A DNA stretch of 64,000 nt from Sphingomonas sp. (GCA_965219285.1 CBDCNF010000008.1:303641-367640); one strand, 5' to 3'. Positions 34,727-62,587 are shown, counted from the stretch's first letter. Program-made: numbers and translations. Notes: generated by a model from the letters alone, not told the origin.

Positions 34727-34756
34727 CGGACCGGGATCGAGGCTTAACCCGGTCCG
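34727..34756. terminator. perfect 9-bp hairpin between convergent genes (no U-tract)
   Basis: CGGACCGGG-12 nt-CCCGGTCCG. It lies between the receptor stop (34726) and the radical SAM gene, and covers that gene's stop codon (34744-34746). Confidence 0.3.
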
Positions 34757-35715
34757 GAACAGCGCGCACCGCCCAGCACGCAGAAGCGCGCGCAATGCGG
34801 GTGGTTGAGCGCGATCGGGCGGCTCCCCTCGGCCAGCGTCGCGCCGAGATCGAAGCCGGGATCGTCGGGGATCAGGGTGCAGGCGACCACGCCTGCGTGG
34901 TCCTCGCTGCGGCGATGAACAATCATTCGGCTTGTTGCGCACATCACGTCGCCGGGAGAGACGTCGAGGATGCCCCAGCAAGCGGTGGTGATCTCCGCGA
35001 CGTCGGCGGTCGCGTCCATTTCGGGGAATAGTACCAGGCGCGCCGGATCGCGCGCGTCGATCGCGATGCCGTGTGCGGCGAACAAGGCGGCGTAGCCGGC
35101 GCGGGCTTCGTCATCGGCTTCGGTGGCGAGATGTCGTCCGGCAACCGCGATCGAAAAGCCGTTGGCACAAAGCCATTTCAGCCCGTCCAGCGCGGGCTGC
35201 CAGCTCAGCGCGCCGCGTTCAACCTCATGCACCGCCGGCGTGTGATGATCGAGGCTGACGCGCAGAGTAAGGCGATCGCCGCGCCGTTCGCGTAGCGCGA
35301 GCAAGGCCGTGTCGTGCCGCCGCATCGGCTTCATCGCGTTGGTCAGCACCAGCACGTCGTGCCCGCGGGCGAGCGCCAGATCGAGCATCGCCATGATCTC
35401 GGGATTCATGAACGGCTCACCGCCGGTGAAGCCGATCTCGCGCGTTGCGAAGGCGCCCTCGGCGATCTCGTCGAGGAAGCGCCGGGCTTCTTCCACCGTC
35501 AGGTAGATCAGCGCATCGTTGGTCGGCGAGCTTTCGATATAGCAGGTCGCACAGGCGAGATTGCACAATGTACCGGTGTTGAGCCAGAGCGTTTCCAGCG
35601 CGATCAGCGGAACCTGCGCGCGCGGTTCGCCGACGGCGGTGATTTCGGGATCGGCGAATTTCGCGCGCGGCAGCGGCGGCGCTTCGACGCGGAACGGCGA
35701 CGGACCGGTCGGCAT
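34744..35715 (-). CDS. radical SAM protein with a Cys-rich C-terminal tail (ArsS/TIGR04167-like architecture)
   Basis: The start is trimmed to MPTGPSPF... (14 nt after the upstream stop). It has the CNLACATC CX3CX2C cluster motif, GGEPFMNPE, and the tail ...HPHCARFCVLGGARCSGPG*. Confidence 0.8.
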   Translation of the reverse strand: MPTGPSPFRVEAPPLPRAKFADPEITAVGEPRAQVPLIALETLWLNTGTLCNLACATCYIESSPTNDALIYLTVEEARRFLDEIAEGAFATREIGFTGGEPFMNPEIMAMLDLALARGHDVLVLTNAMKPMRRHDTALLALRERRGDRLTLRVSLDHHTPAVHEVERGALSWQPALDGLKWLCANGFSIAVAGRHLATEADDEARAGYAALFAAHGIAIDARDPARLVLFPEMDATADVAEITTACWGILDVSPGDVMCATSRMIVHRRSEDHAGVVACTLIPDDPGFDLGATLAEGSRPIALNHPHCARFCVLGGARCSGPG

Positions 35716-35729
35716 CGTCCGGGCTCTGG

Positions 35730-37145
35730 TCACGCAAGCCACCGCCGCGTCCTTGCGATCGTCGCCGCCCAGCGTTTGGGCCATGCGCCGAACACCGTTG
35801 GGGATAGCGCCGCGAACGCCGCCGCCTTGGCGATTTCGGATCGTGTCGGATAGGCGACGATCGCCGAACCCAAAGCGAAGGCGGAGGCCTTGCCGGTGAT
35901 GATCTGCGCCCAGGGCAGCACCAATTCGCCCGCGCGCGCGCCGACGATGGTGACGCCGACGACCCTGCCCTTGTGGCGGACGAGCTTGAGGAACCCCCGC
36001 GTGTCGCCTTCGGTGACGGCGCGGTCGTTATGGCTGAAATCCTCTTTCGTCACTTCGACCTTGCCGTATTGCTCGCGCGCCTCGGCTTCGGTCAGCCCGA
36101 TTTGCGCGAGTTCGGGGTCGCTGTAGGTGACGTGCGGCAACGCGCGCCAATCGACCTTACCGGGCCAGCCGAGCGCGACGTCGATGCCGACCAGCGAGCC
36201 TTCATAGCCCGCGACATGCGTGAAGCGCGGGCCGGCGCGGCAATCGCCGATCGCATGGATGCGGCGATTGCTGGTGCGGCGCCGCGCGTCGACGACGATG
36301 CCGTCCTTGCCGACTTTCACACCGGCGGCCTCCAGATCGAGATCGTCGATATTCGCGCGGCGTCCCGTGGCGACAAGCAGATGGCTCCCGGTCACCGATC
36401 GGCCATCGTCGAGCGTTACCGCGATAGTCGCCCCACTCGCCTCGATTTGCGCGACATCGCGCCCGCATTCGATCGTCACGCCCTCCTCGCGCATTTGCGT
36501 CGTAACGAGATCGGCGGCGTCGCGATCGTCGCGCATGAGCATCGCATGCCGCGCGATCACCGTCACTTTGGAGCCGAGCCGGCGAAAGGCCTGCGCCATC
36601 TCCACCGCGATCGCGCCGCCGCCGATGATGACGAGATGATCGGGCAGCACATCCAGCGCGAACAGCGTTTCGTTGGTGAGAAAGGGCGCGTCGATCAGCC
36701 CGTCGATCGGCGGGATCGCCGGTCTGGAGCCGGTCGCGATCACGATGCGCGGCGCCGTCAACGTGCGGTTTCCGGCGCGCACCGTCTTCGCGTCCAGGAA
36801 GTGCGCGCGCGCTCGGATCACGTCGATGCCCATCTTTTCGAACCGGCCTTGCGAATCGTGCGGCGCGATCGCCGCGATCGCGCCATCGACATGCGCGCGG
36901 ACGCCGCGCCAGTCGATTTTCGGTGTCGCAGTGATCCCGAGCCGTGCGCCGTCGCGCGCGCCATGCGCCGCTTTCGCCGCCGCCAGCAGCGCCTTCGAGG
37001 GCACGCAGCCGGTGTTGAGGCATTCGCCCCCCATCTCGCCGGCCTCGATCAACGCGACCTTCAGCCCGAACATCGCCACCCCGCCGGCAGCGGTCAACCC
37101 GGCCGATCCCGCGCCGATCACGATCAGGTCGAATGTATCGGTCAT
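35730..37145 (-). CDS. FAD-dependent pyridine nucleotide-disulfide oxidoreductase (dihydrolipoyl dehydrogenase/mercuric reductase-like)
   Basis: The start is trimmed to MTDTFDLIVIGAGSAGLTAAG. It has a redox disulfide (GGECLNTGCVPSK), a second dinucleotide fold (LVIIGGGAIAVEMAQ) and a C-terminal dimerisation domain. Confidence 0.88.
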   Translation of the reverse strand: MTDTFDLIVIGAGSAGLTAAGGVAMFGLKVALIEAGEMGGECLNTGCVPSKALLAAAKAAHGARDGARLGITATPKIDWRGVRAHVDGAIAAIAPHDSQGRFEKMGIDVIRARAHFLDAKTVRAGNRTLTAPRIVIATGSRPAIPPIDGLIDAPFLTNETLFALDVLPDHLVIIGGGAIAVEMAQAFRRLGSKVTVIARHAMLMRDDRDAADLVTTQMREEGVTIECGRDVAQIEASGATIAVTLDDGRSVTGSHLLVATGRRANIDDLDLEAAGVKVGKDGIVVDARRRTSNRRIHAIGDCRAGPRFTHVAGYEGSLVGIDVALGWPGKVDWRALPHVTYSDPELAQIGLTEAEAREQYGKVEVTKEDFSHNDRAVTEGDTRGFLKLVRHKGRVVGVTIVGARAGELVLPWAQIITGKASAFALGSAIVAYPTRSEIAKAAAFAALSPTVFGAWPKRWAATIARTRRWLA

Positions 37146-37195
37146 GCCGGGGATACGTTTGCACGACCGCAGCGGTTGCACCATGCTCGCATGGC

Positions 37196-38227
37196 ATGAC
37201 GCGTTTACGTATTCTCATCACCGGCGCGGGCGGGCTGATCGGTGGCGAGATTGCGGCACGGCTGGCGGCGCGCGGTCACCGGGTCAGCGCGCTGGTCCAC
37301 CGCAATCCCGAAGTCCGTGGCAATGACGGGCAGACGCCGGCGCTTCATGCGACGTTCCACGGCGATGTGACGCAGCCCGGCTTCGCGATCGATGCCGCAA
37401 CAGCACGCGACCTCGATCTACTGATCCACTGCGCGGCGACGACGCGGTTCGATCTCAAGGACGAGGATTATCGCGCGGTCAATGTCGCCGGAACCGCGCA
37501 CGCGATCGAGCTTGCCCGCAGCTGCGGCATGGCGCTGCTCCATGTCAGCACCGCCTATGTCTGCGGCAGACGCGATGGAGCGATCGCCGAGGACGATCCG
37601 TTGCCGCGAGACGGCTTCGCCAACGGCTATGAGGCGAGCAAGGCGGAGGGCGAGGCGCTCGTCGCGGCGAGCGGCCTGCGATTTGCGATCGCGCGGCCGA
37701 GCGTGGTGGTGGGCGATTCGACCAGCGGCGCGATCCGAACGTTCGACACGATCTATGCCGCGTTCAAACTGATCGCCGAGGGCAGGGTGCGTCATATGGC
37801 GGCGCACGGCGACGCGACGATCGATTTCGTCCCGATTGATCACGTCGCCGCCGGCATCGTCGCGCTGGCCGAGAATATGCGCGTGGCGGATGGCGGGCGC
37901 TACCATCTCGTCTCGGCGCAACCAGCGCCGGTGGCGATGTTCGCTGCTGCGATCGGTGCCTTTCCGCAGTTCAGCGCGCCGACGCTGGTGCCACCCGAAT
38001 CGTTCGACATAGCCGCGCTGCCGCCGCTGGAACGCCGTCTGTATTCGCGCGTCGCCGGGCTCTACAGCAGCTATTTCCAGCGCGATCCACGCTTCGACGA
38101 CAGCGTTTTCCGAAGCGTCACCGGCCTCGTCTGCCCGCCGACCGGCGCGGCGTATCTCAAGCGGCTGATCGGTTATTGTATTGCGGTCGGCTTCCTGTCG
38201 GGCGACGCCCAGGCATCGCGTTCGTGA
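37196..38227 (+). CDS. SDR-fold NAD-binding protein of the thioester-reductase / NAD_binding_4 type
   Basis: The start is trimmed to MTRLRILITGAGGLIGGEIA. The translation has ...LLIHCAATTRF...LLHVSTAYVCG...YEASKAEGE.... Confidence 0.75.
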   Translation: MTRLRILITGAGGLIGGEIAARLAARGHRVSALVHRNPEVRGNDGQTPALHATFHGDVTQPGFAIDAATARDLDLLIHCAATTRFDLKDEDYRAVNVAGTAHAIELARSCGMALLHVSTAYVCGRRDGAIAEDDPLPRDGFANGYEASKAEGEALVAASGLRFAIARPSVVVGDSTSGAIRTFDTIYAAFKLIAEGRVRHMAAHGDATIDFVPIDHVAAGIVALAENMRVADGGRYHLVSAQPAPVAMFAAAIGAFPQFSAPTLVPPESFDIAALPPLERRLYSRVAGLYSSYFQRDPRFDDSVFRSVTGLVCPPTGAAYLKRLIGYCIAVGFLSGDAQASRS

Positions 38228-39018
38228 CCGAACGGCATAACGAGCGACGCGGCGATACCGGTCTCGCCCGGATCGCGGTACGCAGGAACGCCGATCGTGA
38301 TATCGGATTGCGCCACATCGAGCCGGAAGGTGCCGTGGAGATGGTCCCACAAGGCCAGCCCGCTCGACCAGTTCGAATCGGTCTCGTCCTCGACCGCGCT
38401 GTGGTGGATGCCGTGCATCCTGGGAGTCGTGACGAGGTACGCGAGCAGGCGTTCGAGGCGCTCGGGCAAGGCAAGATTGCTGTGGTGGAACAGGATCGAG
38501 ACGAAGAACCAGCCCTGCCAGATTTTCAGCGCGCGCGGGGAAACGCCGATCAGCGCGACCTGTGCTGCGCGGTACTGCGCGGAGATCGCCATGTCGGCGG
38601 CGTGGAAACGCAACGCCGTCGTCGTGTCGAGATCGAGATCGATGTGATGGACGAGATGGAAGCGCCAGAGGAACGGTACCCGGTGGGTCGCGACATGCCA
38701 GAGATAGATGGCGTAATCCATCAAAAGCGCTGCCGCCGCATCGCGCGCCCATGCCGGAATCGGCAAATGCTGGACGAGCCCGCTGCGCCTGCGTTCGGCG
38801 CGTTCGGAGAGCGGGTTGGTGAGCGGTGCCTCGACCAGCGCGACGGTCGCCATGCTCAGCGCACCGAGCACCAGATTGGAGAGGCTCCGTCCCGGCTCCG
38901 CCTGCGTCGCCTTGCGCAACGGTCGCTTCCTTTCGCCGGCGAACAACGCCATCGCGGCGAGGCCGAGCGCGGCAGCGCCGGCGATCGTCACCATCCTGTC
39001 GTGACGGGCCGTGTCCAT
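38173..39018 (-). CDS. fatty acid hydroxylase / sterol desaturase superfamily membrane protein
   Basis: The start is trimmed to MDTARHDRMV.... His boxes are HVATH, HLVHH, FHHSN and MHGIHH. The 3' end overlaps the convergent SDR gene by 55 nt. Confidence 0.8.
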   Translation of the reverse strand: MDTARHDRMVTIAGAAALGLAAMALFAGERKRPLRKATQAEPGRSLSNLVLGALSMATVALVEAPLTNPLSERAERRRSGLVQHLPIPAWARDAAAALLMDYAIYLWHVATHRVPFLWRFHLVHHIDLDLDTTTALRFHAADMAISAQYRAAQVALIGVSPRALKIWQGWFFVSILFHHSNLALPERLERLLAYLVTTPRMHGIHHSAVEDETDSNWSSGLALWDHLHGTFRLDVAQSDITIGVPAYRDPGETGIAASLVMPFGHERDAWASPDRKPTAIQ

Positions 39019-39086
39019 GCGTCGAAAACCCGCGCCGCGCCGAGGAGTTGCGTGCGCGGCGGCGGCGCCTGCGCTATCGCTGGCCG

Positions 39087-39668
39087 ATGAACCCACGCGT
39101 CGTCCTGTTCACGCGCTATCCCGAAGCGGGCAAGGCCAAGACCCGGCTGATCCCGGCATTGGGCGCGGACGGCGCCGCCGCGCTCCACCGCACGCTCACC
39201 GAGCGGACGGTGCGCGCGGTGCAGGAGGGTGGGCTGGCGCTGGAGGTAAGGACCACCGGCGCGCCGGTCGCGGTGTTCGAGGCATGGCTTAGCAAGATTA
39301 CGATCGTCGATCAGGGGGGCGGCGATCTTGGCGAGCGGCTGGCGCGCGCGGCACCGCCTTACCCGACGATCTTCATCGGCTCGGACGCGCCCGATGTGAC
39401 GGCCGATCTGCTGCGAAATGCCGCCGACGCGCTGGCGCATGCCGACGCGGTGATCGGGCCTGCCGAGGACGGCGGATATTGGCTGCTCGGGCTTGCGCGA
39501 GAGGTTCGCGGCGTGTTCGAGCGGATCGATTGGGGAACTGGCGCGGTCCTCACGCAGACTGTGACGCGTCTCGCGGATGCCGGGATCGATCCGGTGCGCG
39601 TGCCCGAACTCGCCGATTGCGACCGGCCCGAGGATCTTGCACGCTGGCCGCATTTGATCTCGGGGTGA
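39087..39668 (+). CDS. DUF2064 (CofC-like) protein, resembling rSAM/selenodomain-associated transferase 1 (TIGR04282)
   Basis: MNPRVVLFTRYPEAGKAKTRLIPALG...IGSDAPD...IGPAEDGGYWLLGL...IDWGT.... This is the DUF2064 pattern as I recall it. Confidence 0.75.
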   Translation: MNPRVVLFTRYPEAGKAKTRLIPALGADGAAALHRTLTERTVRAVQEGGLALEVRTTGAPVAVFEAWLSKITIVDQGGGDLGERLARAAPPYPTIFIGSDAPDVTADLLRNAADALAHADAVIGPAEDGGYWLLGLAREVRGVFERIDWGTGAVLTQTVTRLADAGIDPVRVPELADCDRPEDLARWPHLISG

Positions 39669-40396
39669 GCGAGGCGGTCGCCATCGTCATCCCCACGCTC
39701 GACGAGGCGACGACCTTGCCGCGCCTCGCGCGTCTGCTTGCCGCGCTCGATCCACCGCCCGACGAAATTTTGGTGGTCGATGGCGGCAGCACGGACGGTA
39801 CGGCGAAAATCGCGCGCGACCTCGGCTTGGCGGTTATCGAACATCACGAACAGGGTCGGTCGCGCCAGATCAATCGCGGCGTCGATGCGGTGTCCGGCCC
39901 GATCGTCTGCGTGCTCCACGCCGATACCGAGCCGCCCGACGACATGATCGCGGTGATCCGCCGGACGATGGCCGATCCGAAGATCGCGCTCGCCGGGTTT
40001 ACGCCGTTGCTAAGCGGACCCGACAAGGTGCGCTGGGTCACCTCATTCCATAACTGGATCAAGACCTGGTACGCGCCGCTGCTGCTCCGTCCGCATCTGT
40101 TCGTGAAGGGCGTCCGCCTGCTGTTCGGCGATCACGCGATGTTCTTTCGCCGCGCCGATTTCCTCGCCGTGGGCGGCTGCGATCCAGGCATGAGCGTGAT
40201 GGAGGAGGCCGATCTTTGCGTGAAGATGGCGCGTTTCGGCCGCGTCCGGCTGGTCAATCGCGTGATCCTCACCTCCGACCGGCGCGTCGCGGCCTGGGGC
40301 GAGTGGAAGGCGAACTGGATTTACTTCACCGTCGGCATCCGCTGGGCGATGGGCCTGCACAAGCGGCTCGGCGAGCGCTATCCGCATATTCGCTGA
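39665..40396 (+). CDS. family-2 glycosyltransferase, resembling rSAM/selenodomain-associated transferase 2 (TIGR04283, MftF-like)
   Basis: GTG 39665 start (GTGA overlap with the upstream stop). The translation reads VAIVIPTLDEA...VVDGGSTDGT...GRSRQIN.G...LHADT...FGDHAMFFRR..F...GG. Confidence 0.75.
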   Translation: MSEAVAIVIPTLDEATTLPRLARLLAALDPPPDEILVVDGGSTDGTAKIARDLGLAVIEHHEQGRSRQINRGVDAVSGPIVCVLHADTEPPDDMIAVIRRTMADPKIALAGFTPLLSGPDKVRWVTSFHNWIKTWYAPLLLRPHLFVKGVRLLFGDHAMFFRRADFLAVGGCDPGMSVMEEADLCVKMARFGRVRLVNRVILTSDRRVAAWGEWKANWIYFTVGIRWAMGLHKRLGERYPHIR

Positions 40397-40397
40397 G

Positions 40398-40712
40398 CTA
40401 TTTTCGGGATTTCCCGCGCACGCCCCGGATGGTCGAGAAGGCGCCGTAACCGATCAACAGCGCGAGCGCCGCCCAGACCCAGACCGGAATATCGTGGCCG
40501 ACGATCGCCAAATAGAGATAGGCCGACACGAAGAAGAAGCCCGCACACAGAACGGGCAGCACGATCGACTGGCCGGCGCGCAACCGTCGGACCAGCCAGG
40601 CGATCGACAGCAGGAAAAACGGGATCGCGCCGACGTAGATCGCGCCGAACACGATCGGATCGACGCCGTACCGCGCGCCCAGCCCGAAGAACCAGTCGTG
40701 AAGCGCGTTCAT
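40398..40712 (-). CDS. small integral membrane protein (104 aa, about 3 TM helices)
   Basis: MNALHDWFFGLGARYGVDPIVFGAIYVGAIPFFLLSIAWLV...VLPVLCAGFFFVSAYLYLAIV...VWVWAALALLIGYGAF.... ATGA overlap with the upstream radical SAM stop. Its stop lies 1 nt from the convergent GT2 stop. Confidence 0.65.
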   Translation of the reverse strand: MNALHDWFFGLGARYGVDPIVFGAIYVGAIPFFLLSIAWLVRRLRAGQSIVLPVLCAGFFFVSAYLYLAIVGHDIPVWVWAALALLIGYGAFSTIRGVRGKSRK

Positions 40713-41755
40713 GCCGCCGCAAGCCGTGCCGCGCGCCGGTCGCGCAGAACGTCGCCTAGCGTCTCGCGGAAATAGGCGTCGCAGCCGAGACACGGATTGG
40801 CGACCGTCTGCCCCTTGGGATCGACGCGAACCGATGTTTCGCGGAACGCCTCCCGGCTCAGCCCCTCCTGTTCGCCCATCCCCTCGGGATCGCCGCGATT
40901 GAGCGCCAGGATCGCTGGCTCGGTACGCAGATCGTCGAGAATGTCGGTCAGCCGCTCCTCCGCAAGACTCCCGAGCGGCGCCTGCGTCTTGAGGCAGCAG
41001 GGGTAGAGCGATCCGTCGGGCTCGATCGCGACCTCCGATCCGGACTGGCCGTAATCGAGAAAGCTCTTCGCGCCCGACCAGCGCGCGCAGAAATTCGTCT
41101 CGTAATCCGCCTGCACCAGCCCGTTGGTCCACGCGCGCCCGCGCGGCCAGAGTTCGCCGATCCACAGATCGGGTTGCGCGCCGAAGAACAGGAAGCTCGG
41201 GCCGGTCTCGGCGCGCGCGGGTTTGGGTTCCTTTAGCCGTTGGTCCTTGGCGATCCCCAGACTCACTTCGCGCACGCCCAATCCGGCCATCATCGCGCGA
41301 ATGCGATCCATCAGGCGGAACTTGCCGTCGCCGGCGTGGCCGACATGATAATCGTCGATGCTAGCGACCGCGATGGTCGAGACGCCGCGCGCGATCATGT
41401 CGCGGACATGATTCTCGGTCATGATGTCGCCGGTGGTCTGCACGCCGATGCGCGGGCCATCGTCGCCCCAGCGTTCGCGGATGCCCGCCAGCACCGGCCA
41501 GAACAACTCCTCGCGCACGCCGTCGATCAGCAATTCGCCACCCGCTAGGATCAATGTGGTCGGCTGCTCGCGTCCCTTGGTGTCGATCCAGCGCATGCGA
41601 TCGGGCAGATTGGCGAGGATGCGCGGCCAGGCGGCCTGCCCTTCGCCCACCACGCCTTTCAGCGCATCGCGGACATAGGGCCGAAAGCGATCGTCGTAAC
41701 AATGCGGGCATTTGCGGTGGCACGCCCAGCTCAGCACCCAATAGATCGATTGCAT
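40709..41755 (-). CDS. radical SAM protein with additional C-terminal Cys motifs (family not recognised)
   Basis: The start is trimmed to MQSIYWVLSWACHRKCPHCYD (CX3CX2C at residues 12-19). Later motifs are LYPCCLK and NPCLGCD. ATGA overlap with the Rieske gene stop. Confidence 0.75.
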   Translation of the reverse strand: MQSIYWVLSWACHRKCPHCYDDRFRPYVRDALKGVVGEGQAAWPRILANLPDRMRWIDTKGREQPTTLILAGGELLIDGVREELFWPVLAGIRERWGDDGPRIGVQTTGDIMTENHVRDMIARGVSTIAVASIDDYHVGHAGDGKFRLMDRIRAMMAGLGVREVSLGIAKDQRLKEPKPARAETGPSFLFFGAQPDLWIGELWPRGRAWTNGLVQADYETNFCARWSGAKSFLDYGQSGSEVAIEPDGSLYPCCLKTQAPLGSLAEERLTDILDDLRTEPAILALNRGDPEGMGEQEGLSREAFRETSVRVDPKGQTVANPCLGCDAYFRETLGDVLRDRRAARLAAA

Positions 41756-42546
41756 CAGCCGCCCCATCGCGCGACGACGCGCCCATCGGTAACGGTGATA
41801 TTGGGCGGCGTGGCGAGCCTCAACGCGGGGTGCGCGGGGCATTTCCCATCGGCCACGTTGAAGACGTAGCCGTGCCACGGGCATCGTATCGCGCGATCCA
41901 CGACCGGTGCTTCATCGAGCGGGCCGAGCCAGTGTGGACAAACGGTCGAATGCGCGATCAGTGCGCCATCGACATCGATCAGCCGAAACGGCGCGCCGCC
42001 GAACTCGAACGTCAGCGGCAAAGCGGCGCGCACCGCCCGCTCCTCGCCGAGATCGAGCGGCGGCGCGGTGAGATCCGGCGTGGTCCGTCGCGCCAGCACG
42101 CGCTCGCGCGCCTGCATCATCGCTTCGTCCTCGTCCCACAGCTTGGCGTAAGCCACCGTATAGGCCTCTCCGAGCGCGGCAAGCCGCTCCGGTCGCTCCT
42201 CGGGGCAATGGAATTCGACCGTGACATCGACGACGTCGGTGTCGATCGGATCAAGCGCGACGCGGATTTCGGTGCCCTTTCCGCTGCCCCCGACCGTGGT
42301 CGATGTGTAGCGACCGGCGGCACGATCGGCGCGCATCTCGATCCGCTGCGGCGTCGCGCCTTTGGGAGTCAGATCTACCTGCCAGCCCCACGCGCCGCGA
42401 TCGATCAGCGTGCAATCGGCGAAGCTGCCGTCATGGAGGTGCGCGAGATGTTCCCAGTCGAACACATTCTCCCAGATCCGCGCTGGCGATGCGTTCACAC
42501 GCCGCCGGTAGGTCCCGGCCAGATGCAGCGCCGGCGCCACGCTCAT
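41755..42546 (-). CDS. two-domain protein: N-terminal SRPBCC-like domain plus C-terminal Rieske [2Fe-2S] domain
   Basis: Rieske ligands are CPHWLGPL...CPWHGYVF. The N-terminal ~150 aa (..RRVNASPARIWENVFDWEHLAHLHD..) looks like a START/SRPBCC lipid-binding fold. The start at ATG 42546 overlaps the DUF2147 stop (ATGA). Confidence 0.75.
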   Translation of the reverse strand: MSVAPALHLAGTYRRRVNASPARIWENVFDWEHLAHLHDGSFADCTLIDRGAWGWQVDLTPKGATPQRIEMRADRAAGRYTSTTVGGSGKGTEIRVALDPIDTDVVDVTVEFHCPEERPERLAALGEAYTVAYAKLWDEDEAMMQARERVLARRTTPDLTAPPLDLGEERAVRAALPLTFEFGGAPFRLIDVDGALIAHSTVCPHWLGPLDEAPVVDRAIRCPWHGYVFNVADGKCPAHPALRLATPPNITVTDGRVVARWGG

Positions 42547-42947
42547 TTTGCCGGTTTCCAATGCTGCGTCTTACAGAAGAACAGGATGCACCCCTGCGCC
42601 TTCAGCCCGCCGGTCTCGCGCGAGACGATCGATTTGTACCATTTGCCGGCTTCGGGATCGTAGATATGGCCGCGCCAATCGTCTCCCTGATCGGTAAAGC
42701 CGCGCAGCACTTCAAGTCCCTGAATAGGCCGATGGCGTAATTTCGGATCGGGGTTGCGTTCGTCGATCGGCGGACCCTTTGGGGTCGGCGCGAGGATCTT
42801 GGTAATATGGCCGCAGACGACCTTGCCGCATTTCGCAATCGTGACGAGCGCCTTGCCGTCGTCGGTGATCCAGCGCCCGGTGATCGGCTCGGCGGCTTGC
42901 GCTGCTCCGGCGAACGCGAGGAGGGAAAGGAAAATCATCGATCGCAT
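42543..42947 (-). CDS. secreted DUF2147-domain protein
   Basis: The start is trimmed to MRSMIFLSLLAFAGAAQA|AEPITGRW.T.DGKA.V.I..CG...CG.I....... The translation then continues ...W.G.IYDP..GK.Y, the DUF2147 pattern. Confidence 0.75.
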   Translation of the reverse strand: MRSMIFLSLLAFAGAAQAAEPITGRWITDDGKALVTIAKCGKVVCGHITKILAPTPKGPPIDERNPDPKLRHRPIQGLEVLRGFTDQGDDWRGHIYDPEAGKWYKSIVSRETGGLKAQGCILFFCKTQHWKPAK

Positions 42948-42993
42948 GGTGCGGCTGTTCCAATCGTGAGAAAGAGGGTGCTGGAGGACGAGA

Positions 42994-43863
42994 ATGAACG
43001 CTGAGTGGACCATCGGGATCATCGGGGGCTCTGGTCTATACGCCATAGACGCGCTGGAGGATGCAGAATGGCGTGACGTCGCGACTCCTTGGGGCACACC
43101 GTCGGATCAGATCCTGCACGGTCGGATCGGCGACGTCGCCTTACGATTCCTGCCGCGGCACGGCCGCGGCCACCCGATTCCGCCGCACGCGGTGAATGCG
43201 CGCGCCAATATCGATGCGCTCAAACGTTGCGGCTGTACCGACCTGCTGGCGATTTCCTCGATCGGCTCGTTGCGCGAGGAACTGGCGCCGGGCCGCTTCG
43301 TCGTCGTCGATCAGTTCATCGATCGCACCGTCGGGCGCCCGCCGAGCTTCTTCGGCACTGGCATGGTCGCGCATGTCTCGATGGCCGAACCGGTCTGTCC
43401 GCGGCTTTCCGCTCTGGCCGCCGCTTCGGTCACGGCGGCGGGGGGCCGCGTTGCCGAAGGCGCGACCTATCTGGCGATGGAGGGGCCGCAATTCTCGACG
43501 CGCGCGGAAAGCCTGCTCTACCGGCAATGGGGTGCCGACGTGATCGGCATGACCGCGATGCCCGAGGCGCGCCTCGCGCGCGAAGCGGAGCTGCCCTATG
43601 CGCTGGTCGGCATGGTCACCGATTACGATTGCTGGCGAGACGAAGCCGCGTTCGTCGAAGTTTCCCAGGTCATCGAACAAATGACCGCGAACGGCGCGAT
43701 CGCGCGCGCGATGGTCGAGCGGTTCGTCGCGGCGTTGCCGACGGAGCGCGCGGCGTCCCCGATCGACACGACGCTGGACCACGCGTTGATCACCGCGCCC
43801 GATGCGCGAGATCCGGCGATGCTCGCACGGCTGGACGCCGTTGCCGGACGGGTGCTGGGTTAG
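42994..43863 (+). CDS. mtnP: S-methyl-5'-thioadenosine phosphorylase
   Basis: 289 aa reading IGIIGGSGLY...FLPRHGRGH...NI.ALK..G......SS.GSL.....PG..V..DQFIDRT...GMT..PEA.LARE. Confidence 0.88.
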   Translation: MNAEWTIGIIGGSGLYAIDALEDAEWRDVATPWGTPSDQILHGRIGDVALRFLPRHGRGHPIPPHAVNARANIDALKRCGCTDLLAISSIGSLREELAPGRFVVVDQFIDRTVGRPPSFFGTGMVAHVSMAEPVCPRLSALAAASVTAAGGRVAEGATYLAMEGPQFSTRAESLLYRQWGADVIGMTAMPEARLAREAELPYALVGMVTDYDCWRDEAAFVEVSQVIEQMTANGAIARAMVERFVAALPTERAASPIDTTLDHALITAPDARDPAMLARLDAVAGRVLG

Positions 43864-45125: not shown

Positions 45126-45181
45126 GTACCCCCTGCACCATAAGCGAACCACGAAACCGGGGAGCCGTCTAGGGCGCGACC

Positions 45182-46777
45182 GTGCGGCTTGACGCTTTGC
45201 GCGTACGCGTGGTTTCTCGCGAGATGGCCAGCCGCTATCCTCCACAACTCGTCGATGCCGCGCTGGCGCTTCACGACAACCGGCTCGGTGAGGCGGAGCC
45301 GGTGTTGCGCGCGTACCTGAAGCGCGATCCGTTCGATGCGCGCGCGATCCGGATGCTTGCCGAACTCGCCGGGCGGATCGGGCGGTACAAGGATGCCGAG
45401 ACTTTGTTGCGCCGCGCGATCGAGATCGCGCCGGGCTTCACCGCGGCACGCGCCAATATGGCGATTGTGCTCCACCGCCAAGGGCGGTCGGCGGACGCGC
45501 TTGCCGAACTCGACGCGGTGTTGGCCGACGAACCCGACAATCCCGGCCACAGCAATCTGAAGGCGGCTGCGCTCGGCAGGATCGGCGGGTTCGAAGAGGC
45601 GATCACGCTGTATGAGCAGGTGCTGGCAAACGCGCCGCACCAGCCCAAGGTGTGGATGAGCTATGGCCATATGCTCAAGACGATCGGGCGGCAGGCCGAT
45701 GGTGTGGCCGCCTATCGCCGTGCGATCGCGCTGCGCCCGGCACTGGGCGAGGCGTGGTGGAGCCTCGCCAATCTGAAGACGGTGAAGTTCGACGATGCCG
45801 ATATCGCGGCGATGCGGGCGGCGCTCGCCGGTCCCGCGATTTCCGACGAGGATCGTTTCCACCTCGATTTCGCGGTCGGCAAAGCGCTCTGGGACGTGGG
45901 CGACGATGCCGCGAGCTTCGCGCATTATGCCGATGGAAACGCGCTTCGCCGGACGGCGATCGTCTACGACGCCGACGCGACTGAGGCCTTCGTCGATCGC
46001 TCGATCATGCTGTTCGACGCGGACTTCTTCGCTGCGCGCGTCGGGCAAGGCTGCCCCGGTTCCGATCCGATCTTCGTGCTCGGCATGCCGCGCGCGGGAT
46101 CGACGCTGGTCGAACAGATTCTCGCCAGCCACAGCCAGATCGAGGGCACCACCGAACTGCCCGACATTCCCGCGCTCGTCCGCGGAATCGAAGACTATCC
46201 GGCAGGACTGGCGACGCTGCCGCCCGAGCGGCTCCGCGAGATGGGCGAAGAATATTTGCGCCGCGCCAGCGTTCAGCGTCGCACCGACAGACCCTATTTC
46301 ATCGACAAGCTGCCCAACAACTGGGCGCATGTCGCGTTGATCCGCTTGATCCTGCCCAATGCGACGATCGTCGACGCGCGGCGCGATGCGATGGATTGCT
46401 GCGTGTCGAACTTCCGCCAGCATTATGCGCGCGGGCAAGGGTTCAGCTACGCGCTCGCGGACATGGGGCGCTATTATCGCGATTACGTCCGGTTCATGGA
46501 ACATATCGATACGGTCCAACCGGGCGCCATCCACCGCGTCGTTCACGAGGATTTGGTCGCGGATACCGAAACGCAAGTTTGGAATTTGCTCGCGGCGTGC
46601 GGTGTGGCGTTCGAGCCCGCCTGTCTCGCGTTTCACGAAACCGAACGCGCGGTGCGGACCGCCAGTTCTGAGCAGGTCCGCCAGCCGATTTCGGCGGGCG
46701 CGATCGGCGGCTGGCGACGGTTCGATCCGTGGCTCGCGCTACTCAAGGACGCGCTTGGCCCGGAATTGTTACGATAG
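45182..46777 (+). CDS. TPR-repeat protein fused to a sulfotransferase domain
   Basis: N-terminal TPR-like repeats are followed by GMPRAGSTLVEQIL (5'-PSB loop) and ...RRD..D...S.F.... The start is uncertain: GTG 45182 or ATG 45224. Confidence 0.8.
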   Translation: MRLDALRVRVVSREMASRYPPQLVDAALALHDNRLGEAEPVLRAYLKRDPFDARAIRMLAELAGRIGRYKDAETLLRRAIEIAPGFTAARANMAIVLHRQGRSADALAELDAVLADEPDNPGHSNLKAAALGRIGGFEEAITLYEQVLANAPHQPKVWMSYGHMLKTIGRQADGVAAYRRAIALRPALGEAWWSLANLKTVKFDDADIAAMRAALAGPAISDEDRFHLDFAVGKALWDVGDDAASFAHYADGNALRRTAIVYDADATEAFVDRSIMLFDADFFAARVGQGCPGSDPIFVLGMPRAGSTLVEQILASHSQIEGTTELPDIPALVRGIEDYPAGLATLPPERLREMGEEYLRRASVQRRTDRPYFIDKLPNNWAHVALIRLILPNATIVDARRDAMDCCVSNFRQHYARGQGFSYALADMGRYYRDYVRFMEHIDTVQPGAIHRVVHEDLVADTETQVWNLLAACGVAFEPACLAFHETERAVRTASSEQVRQPISAGAIGGWRRFDPWLALLKDALGPELLR

Positions 46778-51441: not shown

Positions 51442-52458
51442 CTAGACGCGATCGGATGTCGCGCCTGTTGCCCGAAGACGGCGGCCCGCGTCCAGCCCGC
51501 GATACTCGCCCGCCTGCCAGGCGATGAGTGCGGGCACGCCGATCACGAGATCGCGTGCCCGCTTCAACAGCGACAGCGCCAGCGCGGTCGCAGGGGGCAC
51601 GCCGAACAGCGGGCCGATCAGCGCATAGGTCGCCTCCTGCACGCCGATCGCACCGGGGATCGCGAAGGCGACGCTGCGCAGCGTGAAGATCAGCGCCTCG
51701 AGCGCGATGACCGCAGGCAGCGTCGCGTCGGACCCCATGAAGCGTAGCGCGATCCACGCGCCCGCCGCGCTCGCAATCCAGGCGAGCAGGTTCCACAGAA
51801 AGGCCGCGATCACGCGGCGCGGTTCGCGATAGATGTCGTCGAGCCGTGTCCGCACCGCCGCCATCGCCGCGACCGATCCGGGAAGGACGCGCGCGCCGAG
51901 CTTGCCGGCGAGCCGAAGGATCGGCCGCTGCGCGAAGACAAACGCTGCCATGATCGCCACCATCCCGACGACCCCGGCGATCGCCAGCGGCACTACCCCC
52001 GCCTGCACCGGCAAATGCGTCAGCGCGAGCAGCAGCATCGCGACGCCGGCCAGCGTGAACAGCAATTGCGCCGCCATCTCGGTCGTCAGGTCGGCGATCA
52101 TCGAGGCGTAGACGGTCGGCTCGGCAACGCCCGCCGCAGTCAGCGTCCGCGCGCCGACGACCAAGCCGCCGAGTTGCGAGAACGGCAGGACATCGGTTGC
52201 GGCTTCGCGGGTCGTTCGCGCCCAGATGAACAGCCCGATACGGCCGACACCCTCGCCGGGCGCGACCGCGATCCAGGCCAGCCCGAGCAGCGTCAGCACG
52301 CCGATCGACCACAAGGTGAAGACCGCCATGCCGAGCCAGCCGATCGCGGCCATCGCTTCGAAAACCTGACGTGCGCCGACGATCCCGGTGGTGAACGCCG
52401 CGACCGCAAGGCCGATCAGGGTCAGGAGAAGGAAACCAGCGTGGGCGTATTTCTTCAT
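51442..52458 (-). CDS. hpnL: HpnL-like lysyl-PG-synthase-TM-region (flippase-like) membrane protein
   Basis: 338 aa and polytopic. Its position in the hpn cluster and its N-terminus (MKKYAHAGFLLLTLIGLAVAA...) fit hopanoid-associated HpnL. Confidence 0.7.
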   Translation of the reverse strand: MKKYAHAGFLLLTLIGLAVAAFTTGIVGARQVFEAMAAIGWLGMAVFTLWSIGVLTLLGLAWIAVAPGEGVGRIGLFIWARTTREAATDVLPFSQLGGLVVGARTLTAAGVAEPTVYASMIADLTTEMAAQLLFTLAGVAMLLLALTHLPVQAGVVPLAIAGVVGMVAIMAAFVFAQRPILRLAGKLGARVLPGSVAAMAAVRTRLDDIYREPRRVIAAFLWNLLAWIASAAGAWIALRFMGSDATLPAVIALEALIFTLRSVAFAIPGAIGVQEATYALIGPLFGVPPATALALSLLKRARDLVIGVPALIAWQAGEYRGLDAGRRLRATGATSDRV

Positions 52459-53393
52459 GCCGACGCCGGTTTACCACCGATCAAACGGAGCGCCAGCCGT
52501 ATCGCCCCCGGCACGAATTTCGGCCGCAGCAGGCGGGGGTCGTAAACCGCCAGGCGTCGGTCGTTTTCCGAAAGGCAGATCGCGGCGAGTTCGGAAAAGC
52601 TGACCTCGACGCCCAAGTCCTTCGATCCGTTCAGCGTGAAATTATTCTCCTGCGCCTTGGTGTTGCCGTTTCCCATCCCTTTGGCGATGCTGATCCGCTC
52701 GCCGATCAGGAACAGCCAGACGAGGATCACCTTTGCCTCGAACAGCGGCCGGCGCCACCACGGCATCGTCCGACGCCACCACGCCACCCAATTGACGAAG
52801 AACAGGATATGCCGTCCTTCCTCGCGCATCACCGGCTCGAACGTGTCGATCAGTTCAGCGGGGAAGAAGCCGGTGTCGCTGGCGAGCTTGAACAGGCCGA
52901 AGCCGAAGAAGCTATCGATACATTCGGAATAACCGGTGCGCAGAAAGGCAAATTCGGCGTCGCGTGGGCGGACATATCCGGGTTCGGGCTGAAGCGCGAT
53001 GCCGTACGCCGCGACCATGTCGGCGAGGACGACCTTGTGGCGGCGCTCCTCATACGCGTTCATCCCGATCGCTTCCTTGAGCAAGGGATCGTCGATCTGC
53101 TCGTTGAAGGTCTTCACGTTCATCGACGCGCGTCCCTCGGTCTGGACCGCAATGTCCCAGATCGGCAGGCTGACGATCCGGTCGCGCGTTTCGGCCGCGA
53201 GCGTCGGCCAGTGGATGAGCGCCGGATGGTAGGGATCGTGCGTGTCGAGCATCATTCGCGACAAGAGCCGGCGATGCGCGTCCGATCCCAGCGCTACCGG
53301 GCGTTCGGGGGGCGGGGGCGCTTCGAAGCTCGCGGCTGAGATCGCAAGCGGCGCAAGGTCAGGATGATGCCGCGTGGTGAGCGAAGTGGCCAT
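52455..53393 (-). CDS. ferritin-like di-iron-carboxylate protein with a hydrophobic C-terminal segment; function unknown
   Basis: 312 aa with two E...ExxH elements (NAYEERRHKV and VMREEGRHILF), then WVAWWRRTMPWWRRPLFEAKVILVWLFLIG. ATGA overlap with the hpnL start and a 35-nt overlap with the hpnK 3' end. Confidence 0.7.
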   Translation of the reverse strand: MATSLTTRHHPDLAPLAISAASFEAPPPPERPVALGSDAHRRLLSRMMLDTHDPYHPALIHWPTLAAETRDRIVSLPIWDIAVQTEGRASMNVKTFNEQIDDPLLKEAIGMNAYEERRHKVVLADMVAAYGIALQPEPGYVRPRDAEFAFLRTGYSECIDSFFGFGLFKLASDTGFFPAELIDTFEPVMREEGRHILFFVNWVAWWRRTMPWWRRPLFEAKVILVWLFLIGERISIAKGMGNGNTKAQENNFTLNGSKDLGVEVSFSELAAICLSENDRRLAVYDPRLLRPKFVPGAIRLALRLIGGKPASA

Positions 53394-54189
53394 TCGAGAT
53401 TCCTTCGCCCACGATCACTGTCTTCGCAATATCGTCGATCAACGCAGCAAGTTCATCGCGGTAGCGATAGCCCGTGGCGGCGCCGGGCCAGTCGTCGGCG
53501 GTGGCGGGGTGGGTATAGATTTCGGTGACCCCCGGCGGCAGCGCGGCCAGCGCGGCGCGCATCCGTGCGGTGTCGAAGGCGCCGGTCCAGGCGAGGCCGA
53601 CGACCTGATCGGGGACGAACAGCCCGGCGCGCCTGAGGCGACGCTGGAGCAGCCGCGCCCACAGCGCCTCGATCCCGCGATTGCCGCGCTCGATCGGCGC
53701 GCGGACGGCGCGCATGCCGTAGCGCCGCCCGACGAGCAGCACCGTCGCCGCGATCGTCGGATGGAGGTGGAAATGCTTGTGCGCATTGACGTGATCGAGC
53801 GGCAGCCCGGTCGCGGCGAAGGCGGCGAACTGCGCCTCGATTTCGCCGGCGAGTTGGCGGCGCGCGGACGGATCGAGGAAGATCCGGACCGCCATCCGCG
53901 CCATATCGGTGCGGAAACGACCATCGGTGCCGACGAGTGCGGGAATTTGCTCCGGCGGCAACGCCGGCACACCTTCGACGAGGACGAGATGGAGCCCAAC
54001 CCCCAGCATCGGCATCCGCCGCGCGCGCGCCACCGCATCGGCCACGGCGGGCGCGGCGACCATCAGGCTCGCGGCGGTAAGGATGCCGTCGCAATGCGCC
54101 TGTTCGACCGCTTCGTTGACCGCAAGGGCGGCGCCGAAATCGTCGGCGGTCACCACCAGGCGCCGCGTCGCTGGAGATTTATCCGCCAC
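53359..54189 (-). CDS. hpnK: HpnK (YdjC/ChbG-like deacetylase, hopanoid-associated)
   Basis: 276 aa reading LVVTADDFGAALAVNEAVEQAHCDGILTAASLMV...GLHLVL.... GTG start. Confidence 0.82.
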   Translation of the reverse strand: MADKSPATRRLVVTADDFGAALAVNEAVEQAHCDGILTAASLMVAAPAVADAVARARRMPMLGVGLHLVLVEGVPALPPEQIPALVGTDGRFRTDMARMAVRIFLDPSARRQLAGEIEAQFAAFAATGLPLDHVNAHKHFHLHPTIAATVLLVGRRYGMRAVRAPIERGNRGIEALWARLLQRRLRRAGLFVPDQVVGLAWTGAFDTARMRAALAALPPGVTEIYTHPATADDWPGAATGYRYRDELAALIDDIAKTVIVGEGISNGHFAHHAASS

Positions 54190-54312
54190 GCCGCCTGTCT
54201 AGCGCGGGAATCGCGGCAATTGCAGCGATCCTGTCTGAAACCTGATCGATCCGTTCATGAAACAATCAGCGCGCTCGCCCATTGTAGGGGCAGTATTGCG
54301 TAGGAGAAAAAA

Positions 54313-54627: not shown

Positions 54628-54683
54628 GGTTTTTCCGGACTTACCCGGCTCGCCGATTGGTTGGGCACCTGTAAAGTAAAAGT

Positions 54684-54716
54684 GGCCTCGCGCAGTTAGC
54701 GCGGGGCCGTTTTCTT
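54684..54716 (+). terminator. rho-independent terminator after the glycine-zipper gene
   Basis: GGCCTCGCGC-AGTTA-GCGCGGGGCC followed by GTTTTCTT. It abuts the hpnJ stop. Confidence 0.6.
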
Positions 54717-62578: not shown

Positions 62579-62587
62579 GCACACCAT

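Follow-up and report, generated by a model that had tools for sequence, protein, structure and literature searches.

We examined a 64,000-nt stretch of Sphingomonas sp. DNA (hereafter the window), in which a compact set of six genes between 34744 and 40396 was confirmed. These six genes belong to a larger, widely conserved block of 11 genes that runs from 34744 to about 43863:

34744..35733, minus strand: radical SAM protein (rSAM1), with CNLACATC and five or six conserved C-terminal Cys
35730..37145, minus strand: FAD/NAD(P)H pyridine-nucleotide disulfide oxidoreductase with a CxxxxC redox pair, a MerA-like core and no C-terminal Cys pair
37196..38227, plus strand: extended SDR of the NAD_binding_4/thioester-reductase type
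38173..39018, minus strand: membrane His-box di-iron oxygenase of the FA_hydroxylase family
39087..39668, plus strand: DUF2064/TIGR04282 protein with a nucleotide-diphospho-sugar-transferase fold (CofC-like)
39665..40396, plus strand: GT2 glycosyltransferase, TIGR04283-like
40398..40712, minus strand: small membrane protein (about 104 aa) with no family
40709..41755, minus strand: second radical SAM-like/SPASM protein (rSAM2), with CHRKCPHC
41755..42546, minus strand: permuted Rieske oxygenase-like protein
42543..42947, minus strand: secreted DUF2147 protein, first gene of the minus-strand operon
42994..43863, plus strand: S-methyl-5'-thioadenosine phosphorylase (MTAP), probable edge of the block

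The observation behind the original prediction, a packed cluster of six genes with recognizable motifs, holds in full. All six open reading frames are present, with a coding-type GC3 of 0.78-0.84. Their translations contain CNLACATC and the Cys-rich tail FCVLGGARCSGPG in rSAM1, GGECLNTGCVPSK in the flavoprotein, GAGGLIGG, STAYV and YEASK in the SDR, and HVATH, HLVHH and HGIHH in the hydroxylase. The stop codon of the FAD gene (35730-35732) and an rSAM1 ATG at 35715 are separated by the predicted 14 nt, although a GTG at 35733, which would instead create a GTGA overlap, fits the N-termini of the homologs better and is the more likely start. The FAD gene and the SDR diverge across 50 bp (37146-37195), whereas the SDR and the hydroxylase converge with an overlap of 55 nt (38173-38227) that is conserved in three related loci (L003, L004 and L083; L numbers designate individual loci in our comparison). 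The hydroxylase and DUF2064 genes diverge across 68 bp, and DUF2064 is translationally coupled to GT2 by a GTGA at 39665-39668. Beyond the predicted limit of 40396, the ATG of the small membrane protein overlaps the rSAM2 stop (ATGA), rSAM2 and the Rieske gene share a TGATG junction, the Rieske and DUF2147 genes overlap by ATGA, and MTAP diverges from the DUF2147 operon across 46 bp.

Profile searches support five of the six family assignments that had been proposed. The following models pass their cut-offs: PF04055 (60.4 bits; cut-off 29.5) for rSAM1, PF07992 (214.6; 26.1) for the flavoprotein, which also matches PF02852, PF07993 (132.5; 20.1) for the SDR, PF04116 (76; 31) for the hydroxylase, PF09837 (101.8; 25.8) and TIGR04282 (177.3; 134) for the DUF2064 protein, and PF00535 (78.5; 23.3) for the GT2. 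TIGR04283 scores 165.4 bits on the GT2, just below its cut-off of 182. The closest curated NCBIfam models for the flavoprotein are all below cut-off, as are TIGR01746 for the SDR (95.8 bits versus 213) and the OlsE model for the hydroxylase (68.7 versus 475). The DUF2064 protein resembles PDB 3CGX, a 'putative nucleotide-diphospho-sugar transferase' (E = 4.7e-24).

Among the added genes, the small membrane protein yields no Pfam or NCBIfam hit, but a homolog of 82% sits at the same position in L004. rSAM2 scores 26 bits for SPASM, only 14 bits for Radical_SAM, and matches no NCBIfam model. It has more than 1000 homologs, occupies the same position in L083, is absent from L003 and L004 and is found elsewhere in unrelated contexts; we regard it as a lineage-specific addition to the block. 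The Rieske-like protein carries an N-terminal SRPBCC/VanA_C-like domain with a D-x2-H-x4-H motif (DWEHLAHLH) and a C-terminal Rieske [2Fe-2S] domain (PF00355, 46 bits; weak VanA_C and Polyketide_cyc2 hits). It is present in 7 of 80 species-level loci, and additionally in L002 and L083. The DUF2147 protein (PF09917, 104.9 bits) lies next to the Rieske gene in L003, and downstream of rSAM1 in 5 of the 6 loci that carry it. MTAP passes TIGR01694 (281.2 bits; cut-off 274.85), remains next to the block in L083 although both outer flanks differ, and is adjacent to rSAM1 in other gene orders in L018, L019, L033, L034 and L064.

Is rSAM1 then an ArsS, as the proposed link to ArsS-type radical SAM/Cys-rich proteins would suggest? 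It is not: TIGR04167 scores 53 bits against a cut-off of 300, and the match covers only the N-terminal half. The best-scoring curated model, the Rv1681 family (NF049973), covers the radical SAM core (residues 42-220) with 101 bits against a cut-off of 380, so that rSAM1 is not a member of this family either; our literature search found no enzymology for that family, only use as a tuberculosis biomarker. rSAM1 instead belongs to a large family that lacks a curated model. This family is nevertheless a full-length, distant homolog of ArsS (hhalign 98.7%, E = 1.6e-16, 266 columns, with the C-terminal Cys pattern aligned), at about 22% identity.

Could the adjacency of these genes be peculiar to one strain? 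To address this, we compared 80 species-level loci centered on rSAM1. In 34 of these, DUF2064 or GT2 lies within the retrieved flank. DUF2064 is present in 32 loci, GT2 in 26 by tblastn (and in 35 loci by clustering), the FAD reductase directly upstream of rSAM1 in 25, the SDR in 18, the hydroxylase in 15, and all six genes in 7. Because these loci are the closest relatives of the query, the frequencies are not an unbiased census, and about half of the sampled rSAM1 genes are solitary, with unrelated housekeeping neighbors, such that the enzyme may have a role that does not need the cluster. L083 retains the block from MTAP to rSAM1. DUF2064-rSAM1 fusion proteins also exist (P0121 and P0233), one of which sits in a cluster with GT2, FA_hydroxylase and a CDP-alcohol phosphatidyltransferase. 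Thus, of the conditions named beforehand as capable of overturning the prediction, neither a general failure of the profiles nor a lack of co-conservation was observed, and no described pathway of this composition turned up in the searchable literature.

The absence of ars genes from the window had been taken to point away from arsenic. We likewise found none: tblastn with ArsM and the MIP channel was negative, and no ars family appeared in any of the open reading frames scanned (all but a few small ones). Orthologous clusters, however, contradict the inference. In 18 loci and in several gene orders, a methyltransferase lies directly beside the FAD reductase/rSAM1 pair, or beside rSAM1 alone. 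It is full-length ArsM, with conserved Cys motifs and E = 6.8e-106 to the Chlamydomonas ArsM structure 5EVJ. An aquaglyceroporin-type MIP is present in 2 loci. The window's rSAM1 nests inside the clade of arsM-linked rSAM1 genes, with L001 as its sister. In a reciprocal test starting from arsM in metagenomes, 11 of 20 long loci carry genes of the module, and the radical SAM gene next to arsM is either true ArsS (L138 at 446 bits, L156 at 452 bits), of the rSAM1 type (L091, L092, L112, L128, L131), or of a third, related subtype. The ArsS locus L138 also carries the VTT-fused FAD reductase and DUF547 that occur in rSAM1 clusters.

The interpretation offered originally is partly supported. The DUF2064/GT2 pair was rightly tied to arsenosugars (NCBIfam now names both families 'arsenosugar biosynthesis glycosyltransferase'), and the thioester-reductase character of the SDR holds. 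The assignment of rSAM1 to the ArsS type, the end of the cluster at 40396 and the reading of the missing ars genes as pointing away from arsenic do not hold. The suggested tailoring of a lipid or glycolipid head group remains plausible and gains some support from the CDP-alcohol phosphatidyltransferase beside the DUF2064-rSAM1 fusion, without being demonstrated by it.

We consider it most likely, though with no more than even confidence and on sequence evidence alone, that the block is the alphaproteobacterial form of an arsenosugar-type pathway for arsenic-containing sugars or lipids, in which rSAM1 substitutes for ArsS. What our analysis establishes is the conservation of the block across species, the distant full-length homology of rSAM1 to ArsS, and the fact that rSAM1 occupies the genomic place of ArsS beside arsM, the TIGR04282/TIGR04283 pair and a MerA-like flavoprotein; the chemistry and the product are inferred. 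In this view, rSAM1 would cleave SAM and attach the 5'-deoxyadenosyl group to a trivalent (methylated) arsenical, as ArsS, which adenosylates DMAs(III) to DDMAA (PMC13598754), does. MTAP would remove adenine by phosphorolysis to give a 5-substituted ribose-1-phosphate, the DUF2064 protein would activate this sugar phosphate as a nucleotide sugar, and the GT2 would transfer the ribosyl unit to glycerol or a membrane lipid. The FAD disulfide reductase would keep the arsenical trivalent or supply electrons, and the SDR, the His-box hydroxylase and the Rieske oxygenase would build or tailor the lipid aglycone. The adjacency of MTAP in at least 7 loci and four gene orders fits a 5'-substituted 5'-deoxyadenosine intermediate, but MTAP is also a housekeeping gene. 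The substrate of rSAM1 is inferred from context alone, the roles of DUF2064, GT2, the SDR, the hydroxylase and the Rieske protein from fold families only, and fusions of rSAM1 to Metallophos and HD_3/YfbR phosphoesterase domains are not explained by this model. In this genome, the arsM found inside the cluster in many relatives would have been lost or moved, and the methylated arsenical would come from an arsM elsewhere in the genome or from the environment.

Might the same enzymology operate here without arsenic? We regard this as possible but less likely. rSAM1 would then adenosylate a different acceptor, the MTAP/DUF2064/GT2 chain would turn the ribose of SAM into a novel envelope glycolipid or head group, and arsM would be an accessory recruited in some lineages only. 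Besides the lack of ars genes in the window and the many solitary rSAM1 genes, this reading draws on other cluster variants without arsM (L003, L004, L007, L011, L013, L031, L066, the Caulobacter type and L088), many of which carry lipid-type genes: FA_hydroxylase, thioester reductase, CDP-alcohol phosphatidyltransferase, a GT87-like protein and a VTT/DedA domain. In the rSAM1 tree, however, arsM-less clusters are nested among arsM-containing ones, which looks like repeated loss or relocation of arsM rather than a separate functional clade. Moreover, rSAM1 proteins from the window and from arsM-linked clusters are 64-74% identical, and the same accessory genes accompany true ArsS.

It is doubtful that the FAD reductase/rSAM1 pair is a detoxification unit for metal(loid)s or reactive species (mercury, selenium, tellurium or chlorine-type stress), unrelated to the adjacent glycosyltransferases. 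The flavoprotein's closest solved structures are mercuric reductases (E = 1.6e-78), it also hits the RclA and hypothiocyanite-reductase models, and ArsM enzymes can methylate other metalloids. Yet all of these models score below their cut-offs, the C-terminal Cys pair that MerA needs is absent, rSAM1 is physically fused to DUF2064 in some organisms, and rSAM1 clusters with DUF2064/GT2 even where the flavoprotein is missing (L019, L020, L025, L033, L066).

A role in tailoring hopanoid side chains, with rSAM1 and MTAP mimicking HpnH and HpnG, is very unlikely. A complete hpn cluster lies 8 kb away (hpnL, K, J, I, B, D, E and shc at 51.4-64 kb; the seven hpn genes scanned all exceed their NCBIfam cut-offs), and proteins of the block give weak, superfamily-level hits to HpnH, HpnA, HpnB and HpnG. 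However, only 1 of 85 loci (L068) has hpn genes near rSAM1, a lack of co-conservation that largely refutes this reading, and the arsM association has no place in hopanoid synthesis. Chance packing of unrelated genes, suggested by their mixed orientations (two divergent and two convergent junctions), is refuted by co-conservation in dozens of species and several gene orders, the fusion proteins, the conserved SDR/hydroxylase overlap and translational coupling at four junctions.

Among the closest described systems is the cyanobacterial arsenosugar pathway of ArsM and ArsS with the TIGR04282/TIGR04283 glycosyltransferases. It shares with our block a TIGR04282 member, a TIGR04283-like GT2, arsM in orthologous clusters and the Cys-rich tail of the radical SAM enzyme, and the MerA-like flavoprotein and DUF547 also occur beside true ArsS. 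The hosts of the present block are aerobic heterotrophic Alphaproteobacteria, and the block adds the thioester-reductase-type SDR, the His-box hydroxylase, the permuted Rieske protein, DUF2147 and, here, rSAM2. The HpnH/HpnG steps of bacteriohopanepolyol synthesis follow the same inferred logic, in which a radical SAM enzyme adds 5'-deoxyadenosyl and an MTAP/PNP-family enzyme releases adenine to leave a ribosyl unit, but the similarity is at superfamily level only (HpnH 31 bits versus 225; HpnG 21 versus 187).

The flavoprotein shares with MerA and class I pyridine-nucleotide disulfide oxidoreductases the fold, the FAD and NAD(P)H domains, the dimerization domain and the CxxxxC redox-active pair, yet scores below the MerA cut-off (362.6 versus 454.45 bits) and has no NmerA domain; in other lineages the orthologous partner is fused to a VTT/DedA membrane domain. 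The SDR shares the Rossmann GxxGxxG motif, the YxxxK catalytic motif and the NAD_binding_4 profile with terminal thioester reductase domains and fatty acyl reductases, its nearest solved structures being the R domains of MxaA (4U7W, E = 7e-17) and of a PKS. It is a stand-alone protein of 343 aa, however, and falls below the PRK07201 cut-off as well. ArsL of arsinothricin biosynthesis, the other radical SAM enzyme that forms a C-As bond, is likewise encoded next to arsM, but is a non-canonical enzyme that transfers the 3-amino-3-carboxypropyl group, and sugar-handling genes do not accompany it.

The six ORFs of the cluster exist at the positions given in the original prediction and have the third-position GC bias of real genes in this 66% GC genome, with GC3 of 0.78-0.84. 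Every motif on which that prediction rested is present in the translations, and the junctions are likewise as it described them, so its observation holds. A 14-nt spacer separates the flavoprotein stop (35730-35732) from the radical SAM ATG (35715), and a 50-bp divergent spacer separates the flavoprotein and SDR genes. The SDR and the His-box hydroxylase converge and overlap by 55 nt, a 68-bp divergent spacer separates the hydroxylase and DUF2064 genes, and DUF2064 and GT2 share a GTGA overlap at 39665-39668. One refinement concerns the radical SAM start. A GTG at 35733 overlaps the flavoprotein stop (GTGA) and matches the longer N-termini of homologues, and the two genes are probably translationally coupled. 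A scan for promoters and terminators yielded no promoter-like sites, and terminator-like sites at the shuffled expectation.

All six Pfam families proposed for these proteins match above their gathering scores, whereas the NCBIfam results are more mixed. The DUF2064 protein passes TIGR04282, an arsenosugar biosynthesis glycosyltransferase family, over its full length (177.3 bits against a cut-off of 134, model positions 1-189 of 189; PF09837 at 101.8 bits). The GT2 protein stays just below TIGR04283, the companion arsenosugar biosynthesis glycosyltransferase family (165.4 against 182 bits, near full length at model positions 2-214 of 221), although this is by far its best-scoring family and its gene is translationally coupled to the TIGR04282 gene. 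The radical SAM protein, here called rSAM1, clearly fails the ArsS model TIGR04167 (53 against 300 bits, with only residues 39-190 matched, in the N-terminal half), while true ArsS from two loci described below, L138 and L156, scores 446 and 452 bits in the same test. The best model for rSAM1, the uncharacterised Rv1681 family, also fails (101 against 380 bits). The flavoprotein resembles MerA, dihydrolipoamide dehydrogenase and glutathione reductase, but stays below every cut-off. Against the mercuric reductase model TIGR02053 it scores 362.6 bits (cut-off 454.45), and its C-terminus, ...AATIARTRRWLA, has no Cys and hence lacks the C-terminal Cys pair of MerA. The SDR passes NAD_binding_4 (PF07993; 132.5 against 20.1 bits) but scores 95.8 against 213.35 bits on the thioester reductase model TIGR01746; its nearest solved structures are thioester-reductase (R) domains. 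The hydroxylase is a generic member of the FA_hydroxylase superfamily (PF04116; 76 against 31 bits, with three His boxes read) and is not OlsE (NF052566; 68.7 against 475 bits).

The cluster is larger than originally predicted. Four translationally coupled genes run on the minus strand from 42947 to 40398, convergent with GT2 and joined by the junctions ATGA, TGATG and ATGA. Listed in the direction of transcription:

minus strand: DUF2147 gene.
41755-42546, minus strand: Rieske oxygenase-like protein with reversed domain order, in which a short SRPBCC/VanA_C-like catalytic domain with D-x2-H-x4-H comes first and the Rieske [2Fe-2S] domain comes last.
40709-41755, minus strand: second radical SAM-like/SPASM protein, here called rSAM2 (CHRKCPHC).
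minus strand: 104-aa membrane protein.

In the Rieske protein both the iron motif and the Rieske Cys/His motifs can be read. Its Rieske domain scores 46.1 against 20.3 bits, but the VanA_C hit is weak (22.1 against 23.5), the catalytic domain is short, and the order is the reverse of the Rieske-then-catalytic arrangement of Rieske non-haem iron oxygenases. The protein recurs with the cluster in Sphingomonadales and Caulobacter. An MTAP gene, above its curated cut-off (TIGR01694; 281.2 against 274.85 bits), lies divergently, 46 bp beyond the minus-strand genes. In L083, a relative's locus whose block proteins are 68-91% identical to those of the window, the same block from MTAP to rSAM1 sits between entirely different flanking genes. 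This sets the block boundaries at about 34744-43863.

Is rSAM2 then a general member of this system? We rejected this reading, as rSAM2 is in the block only in the window and L083, is absent from the related loci L003 and L004, and sits in unrelated contexts elsewhere. It belongs to a family of more than 1000 homologues; no NCBIfam model matches it and it barely registers on Pfam Radical_SAM. In locus L084 a homologue sits in an O-antigen/polysaccharide cluster, and in locus L085 it is solitary.

We next asked how widely the arrangement is conserved. rSAM1 belongs to a very large, strongly conserved family: all 8000 scored candidates had E ≤ 1e-5, 233 representative clusters had E ≤ 1e-30, and at least 588 matching stretches were found in the species-representative genome collection. 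The 80 best loci were retrieved and their flanks searched for module genes.

Module genes in the flanks of rSAM1 (number of loci out of the 80 best).
At least one module gene: 38
DUF2064 or GT2: 34
Flavoprotein: 25
SDR: 18
Hydroxylase: 15
Rieske protein: 7
DUF2147: 6
MTAP: 5
All six originally predicted genes: 7

The gene orders differ between Sphingomonadaceae, Erythrobacteraceae, Caulobacter, Acetobacteraceae, Reyranellaceae and others, which argues for selection on the association rather than inherited synteny. Fusion proteins point the same way, as DUF2064-rSAM1 fusions exist, together with Metallophos-rSAM1 and rSAM1-HD_3 fusions. In locus L086 (8001-9569), rSAM1 is fused to an HD_3/YfbR-like 5'-deoxynucleotidase domain, beside metK and trmB; in locus L087 (329-2185) it is fused to a calcineurin-like phosphoesterase. 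These last fusions hint at a nucleotide or sugar-phosphate step that the model proposed below does not explain. The remaining rSAM1 genes, about half, are solitary among housekeeping genes. The conserved neighbours of these solitary copies are ordinary genes shared through synteny (SDR, CoA-transferase, ABC ATPase, enoyl-CoA hydratase and an M20 hydrolase), identified by reading the sequences rather than by family search.

Could the system be linked to arsenic, even though neither arsM nor any recognisable ars gene was found within the 64-kb window? In 18 loci, a 350-aa methyltransferase lies directly beside the flavoprotein/rSAM1 pair, or beside rSAM1 itself. It is a full-length arsenite methyltransferase, matching the Chlamydomonas ArsM structure 5EVJ at E = 6.8e-106 and the Cyanidioschyzon and human enzymes at about 1e-80, with the Cys-containing motifs conserved in the alignment. 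Two loci also carry a MIP channel. In a neighbour-joining tree of rSAM1, the protein of the window (with L003 and L004) is sister to the sequence of the arsM-linked locus L001, inside a clade dominated by arsM-linked genes in which other arsM-less clusters are interspersed. arsM therefore appears to have been lost from, or moved out of, the cluster several times, and the rSAM1 of the window is an orthologue of the arsM-linked ones.

We also performed the reciprocal test, starting from this ArsM subfamily in metagenome contigs. Of 20 loci with long flanks, 11 carry module genes. The radical SAM gene next to arsM falls into three kinds: true ArsS (L138 at 446 bits and L156 at 452 bits); rSAM1-type (L091 and L092 at 62-64% identity; L112, L128 and L131 at 47-50%); and a third related subtype at about 35% identity to rSAM1. 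The latter lies directly next to arsM in three contigs (HTGTACNLACPFC...CFSCFKYGASCSE), is not ArsS, and again has the Rv1681 family, below cut-off, as its best model:

L106 2721-3497: radical SAM gene of the third subtype.
L111 7002-7991: radical SAM gene of the third subtype.
L130 3604-4668: radical SAM gene of the third subtype.

The ArsS locus L138 also contains a MerA-like flavoprotein fused to a VTT domain, and DUF547, both of which recur in rSAM1 clusters. In another branch of the system (L088 1-910; also L018, L034, L064, L079, L094, L100, L105 and L122) the flavoprotein is fused to a VTT (TVP38/DedA) membrane domain and travels with DUF547, DUF1499 and YdjM-DUF3047 genes, often next to arsM.

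Profile-profile comparison (hhalign) shows that rSAM1 and ArsS are homologous over almost their whole length (98.7%, E = 1.6e-16, 266 columns, about 22% identity). rSAM1 carries the CxxxCxxC radical SAM motif as CNLACATC, and the C-terminal cysteines align at the MC, C and HCxxC...SC positions. Taken together, rSAM1 occupies the genomic niche of ArsS. Structure was less informative: an AlphaFold2 model of rSAM1 (mean pLDDT 78.6), compared with the PDB by Foldseek, returned only generic twitch/SPASM-type radical SAM enzymes at TM about 0.5 (BlsE, SkfB, MoaA, SuiB and viperin), which says nothing about the substrate. Sequence searches of the PDB with rSAM1 and rSAM2 gave only marginal or chance hits.

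What might such a block make? ArsS adds the 5'-deoxyadenosyl radical of SAM to DMAs(III), giving 5'-deoxy-5'-dimethylarsinoyl-adenosine (PMC13598754). We propose that rSAM1 performs the same reaction, and that MTAP would then release adenine by phosphorolysis, its normal chemistry on 5'-substituted 5'-deoxyadenosines. The DUF2064 protein, which is CofC-like and has a nucleotide-diphospho-sugar-transferase fold with PDB 3CGX as a homologue, would convert the resulting ribose-1-phosphate derivative into a nucleotide sugar, and the coupled GT2 would transfer the sugar to glycerol or a lipid. The flavoprotein would keep the arsenical trivalent or feed electrons, while the thioester-reductase-type SDR, the His-box hydroxylase and the Rieske oxygenase would act on the lipid part. 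Our data establish the associations and homologies alone; each of these catalytic steps, including adenosylation of DMAs(III) by rSAM1, is inferred. A NupC-type nucleoside transporter gene that recurs just downstream of rSAM1 in several Erythrobacteraceae (L002 11792-13111; L007, L011 and L012) and in L088 would fit a nucleoside intermediate or adenine/adenosine salvage.

A lipid acceptor has some support from L088. There, a CDP-alcohol phosphatidyltransferase gene (7387-7998) ends 3 nt before a DUF2064-rSAM1 fusion gene, which is followed by GT2, a GT87-like membrane glycosyltransferase, DUF547, DUF1499 and FA_hydroxylase; the locus also encodes the VTT-fused flavoprotein. This is the strongest hint that the product is a phospholipid head group. 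Arsenosugar phospholipids are phosphatidylglycerol-like lipids carrying the arsenoriboside, and ether-linked forms in the surface ocean have been attributed tentatively to bacteria (bioRxiv 10.1101/2021.03.22.436501).

The interpretation offered in the original prediction is thus supported in part: attention to the cluster was justified, but the arsenic connection that it set aside is the best-supported lead. The absence of arsM from the window, the many solitary rSAM1 genes and the unexplained phosphoesterase fusions remain weak points of our model. The main rival, that the same enzymology handles a non-arsenic substrate in arsM-less clusters, we consider unlikely. A detoxification role for the flavoprotein/rSAM1 pair alone has little support. 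The same holds for a hopanoid role, which is suggested by a neighbouring hpn cluster: the genes are not co-conserved, and rSAM1 scores only 31.1 bits against the cut-off of 225 for the adenosyl-hopene transferase HpnH (TIGR03470). Chance adjacency, too, has little support.

A more far-reaching possibility, which we regard as tentative, is that rSAM1 defines a second, ArsS-independent family of C-As bond-forming adenosyltransferases, and that the block built around it makes membrane arsenolipids in aerobic heterotrophic Alphaproteobacteria. The products would be arsenosugar phospholipids, possibly the acyl/ether forms, given the fatty-acyl-reductase-like SDR and a CDP-alcohol phosphatidyltransferase in a relative. 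This would supply the 'overlooked bacterial source' proposed for ether-linked arsenosugar phospholipids in the surface ocean (bioRxiv 10.1101/2021.03.22.436501). Nor can we exclude an even more radical variant, in which, in arsM-less clusters like this one, the same machinery may put a non-arsenic 5-substituted ribose onto a lipid.

NCBIfam already catalogues the DUF2064/GT2 pair as arsenosugar-associated. In contrast, neither Pfam nor NCBIfam has a specific model for the rSAM1 family, which sources name only 'radical SAM protein'. Literature searches on DUF2064, TIGR04282/TIGR04283, ArsS, arsenolipid gene clusters and Rv1681 found no description of this block, although subscription journals were not covered and a prior description cannot be excluded. 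What sets the block apart from the arsenosugar-type clusters already catalogued is the apparent substitute for ArsS, together with extra redox and lipid-type genes. Arsenosugars and arsenolipids are major arsenic species in aquatic food webs, yet in the sources we consulted the only characterised enzymes are ArsM and ArsS, both from cyanobacteria. A distantly related radical SAM family that takes the place of ArsS would widen the set of likely organoarsenic producers to Sphingomonadales, Caulobacterales, Acetobacteraceae and other common soil and marine heterotrophs, and would give a testable function to thousands of proteins now labelled only 'radical SAM protein'. The block also offers candidate enzymes for the uncharacterised steps, namely adenine removal, sugar activation, glycosyl transfer, reduction and lipid tailoring, and would render testable the bacterial origin of ether-linked arsenosugar phospholipids that a field study proposed.

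Further features of the window lie outside the block:

51445-64000: hopanoid biosynthesis cluster, in which hpnL, hpnK, hpnJ, hpnI, hpnB, hpnD and hpnE all score above their NCBIfam cut-offs.
52458-53414, minus strand: 319-aa ORF between hpnL and hpnK.
45173-46777, plus strand: TPR-repeat protein fused to a Sulfotransfer_3 domain.
4826-6066 and 13644-16846: clustered insertion-sequence remnants.

In the hopanoid cluster, a squalene-hopene cyclase gene, recognised by reading only, runs off the end of the window, and hpnH and hpnG are not in the window. The 319-aa ORF has strong coding bias (GC3 0.80) but no Pfam or NCBIfam match, and may be an undescribed hopanoid-associated gene. The insertion-sequence remnants comprise an IS3-type rve integrase, a DDE_Tnp_IS240 fragment, a DDE_3 transposase and a Mutator-family transposase, and mark a plastic region about 18 kb upstream of the cluster. 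The TPR/Sulfotransfer_3 protein lies between the block and the hopanoid cluster, and one 33% homologue of it lies near the cluster in a further rSAM1 locus, L017.
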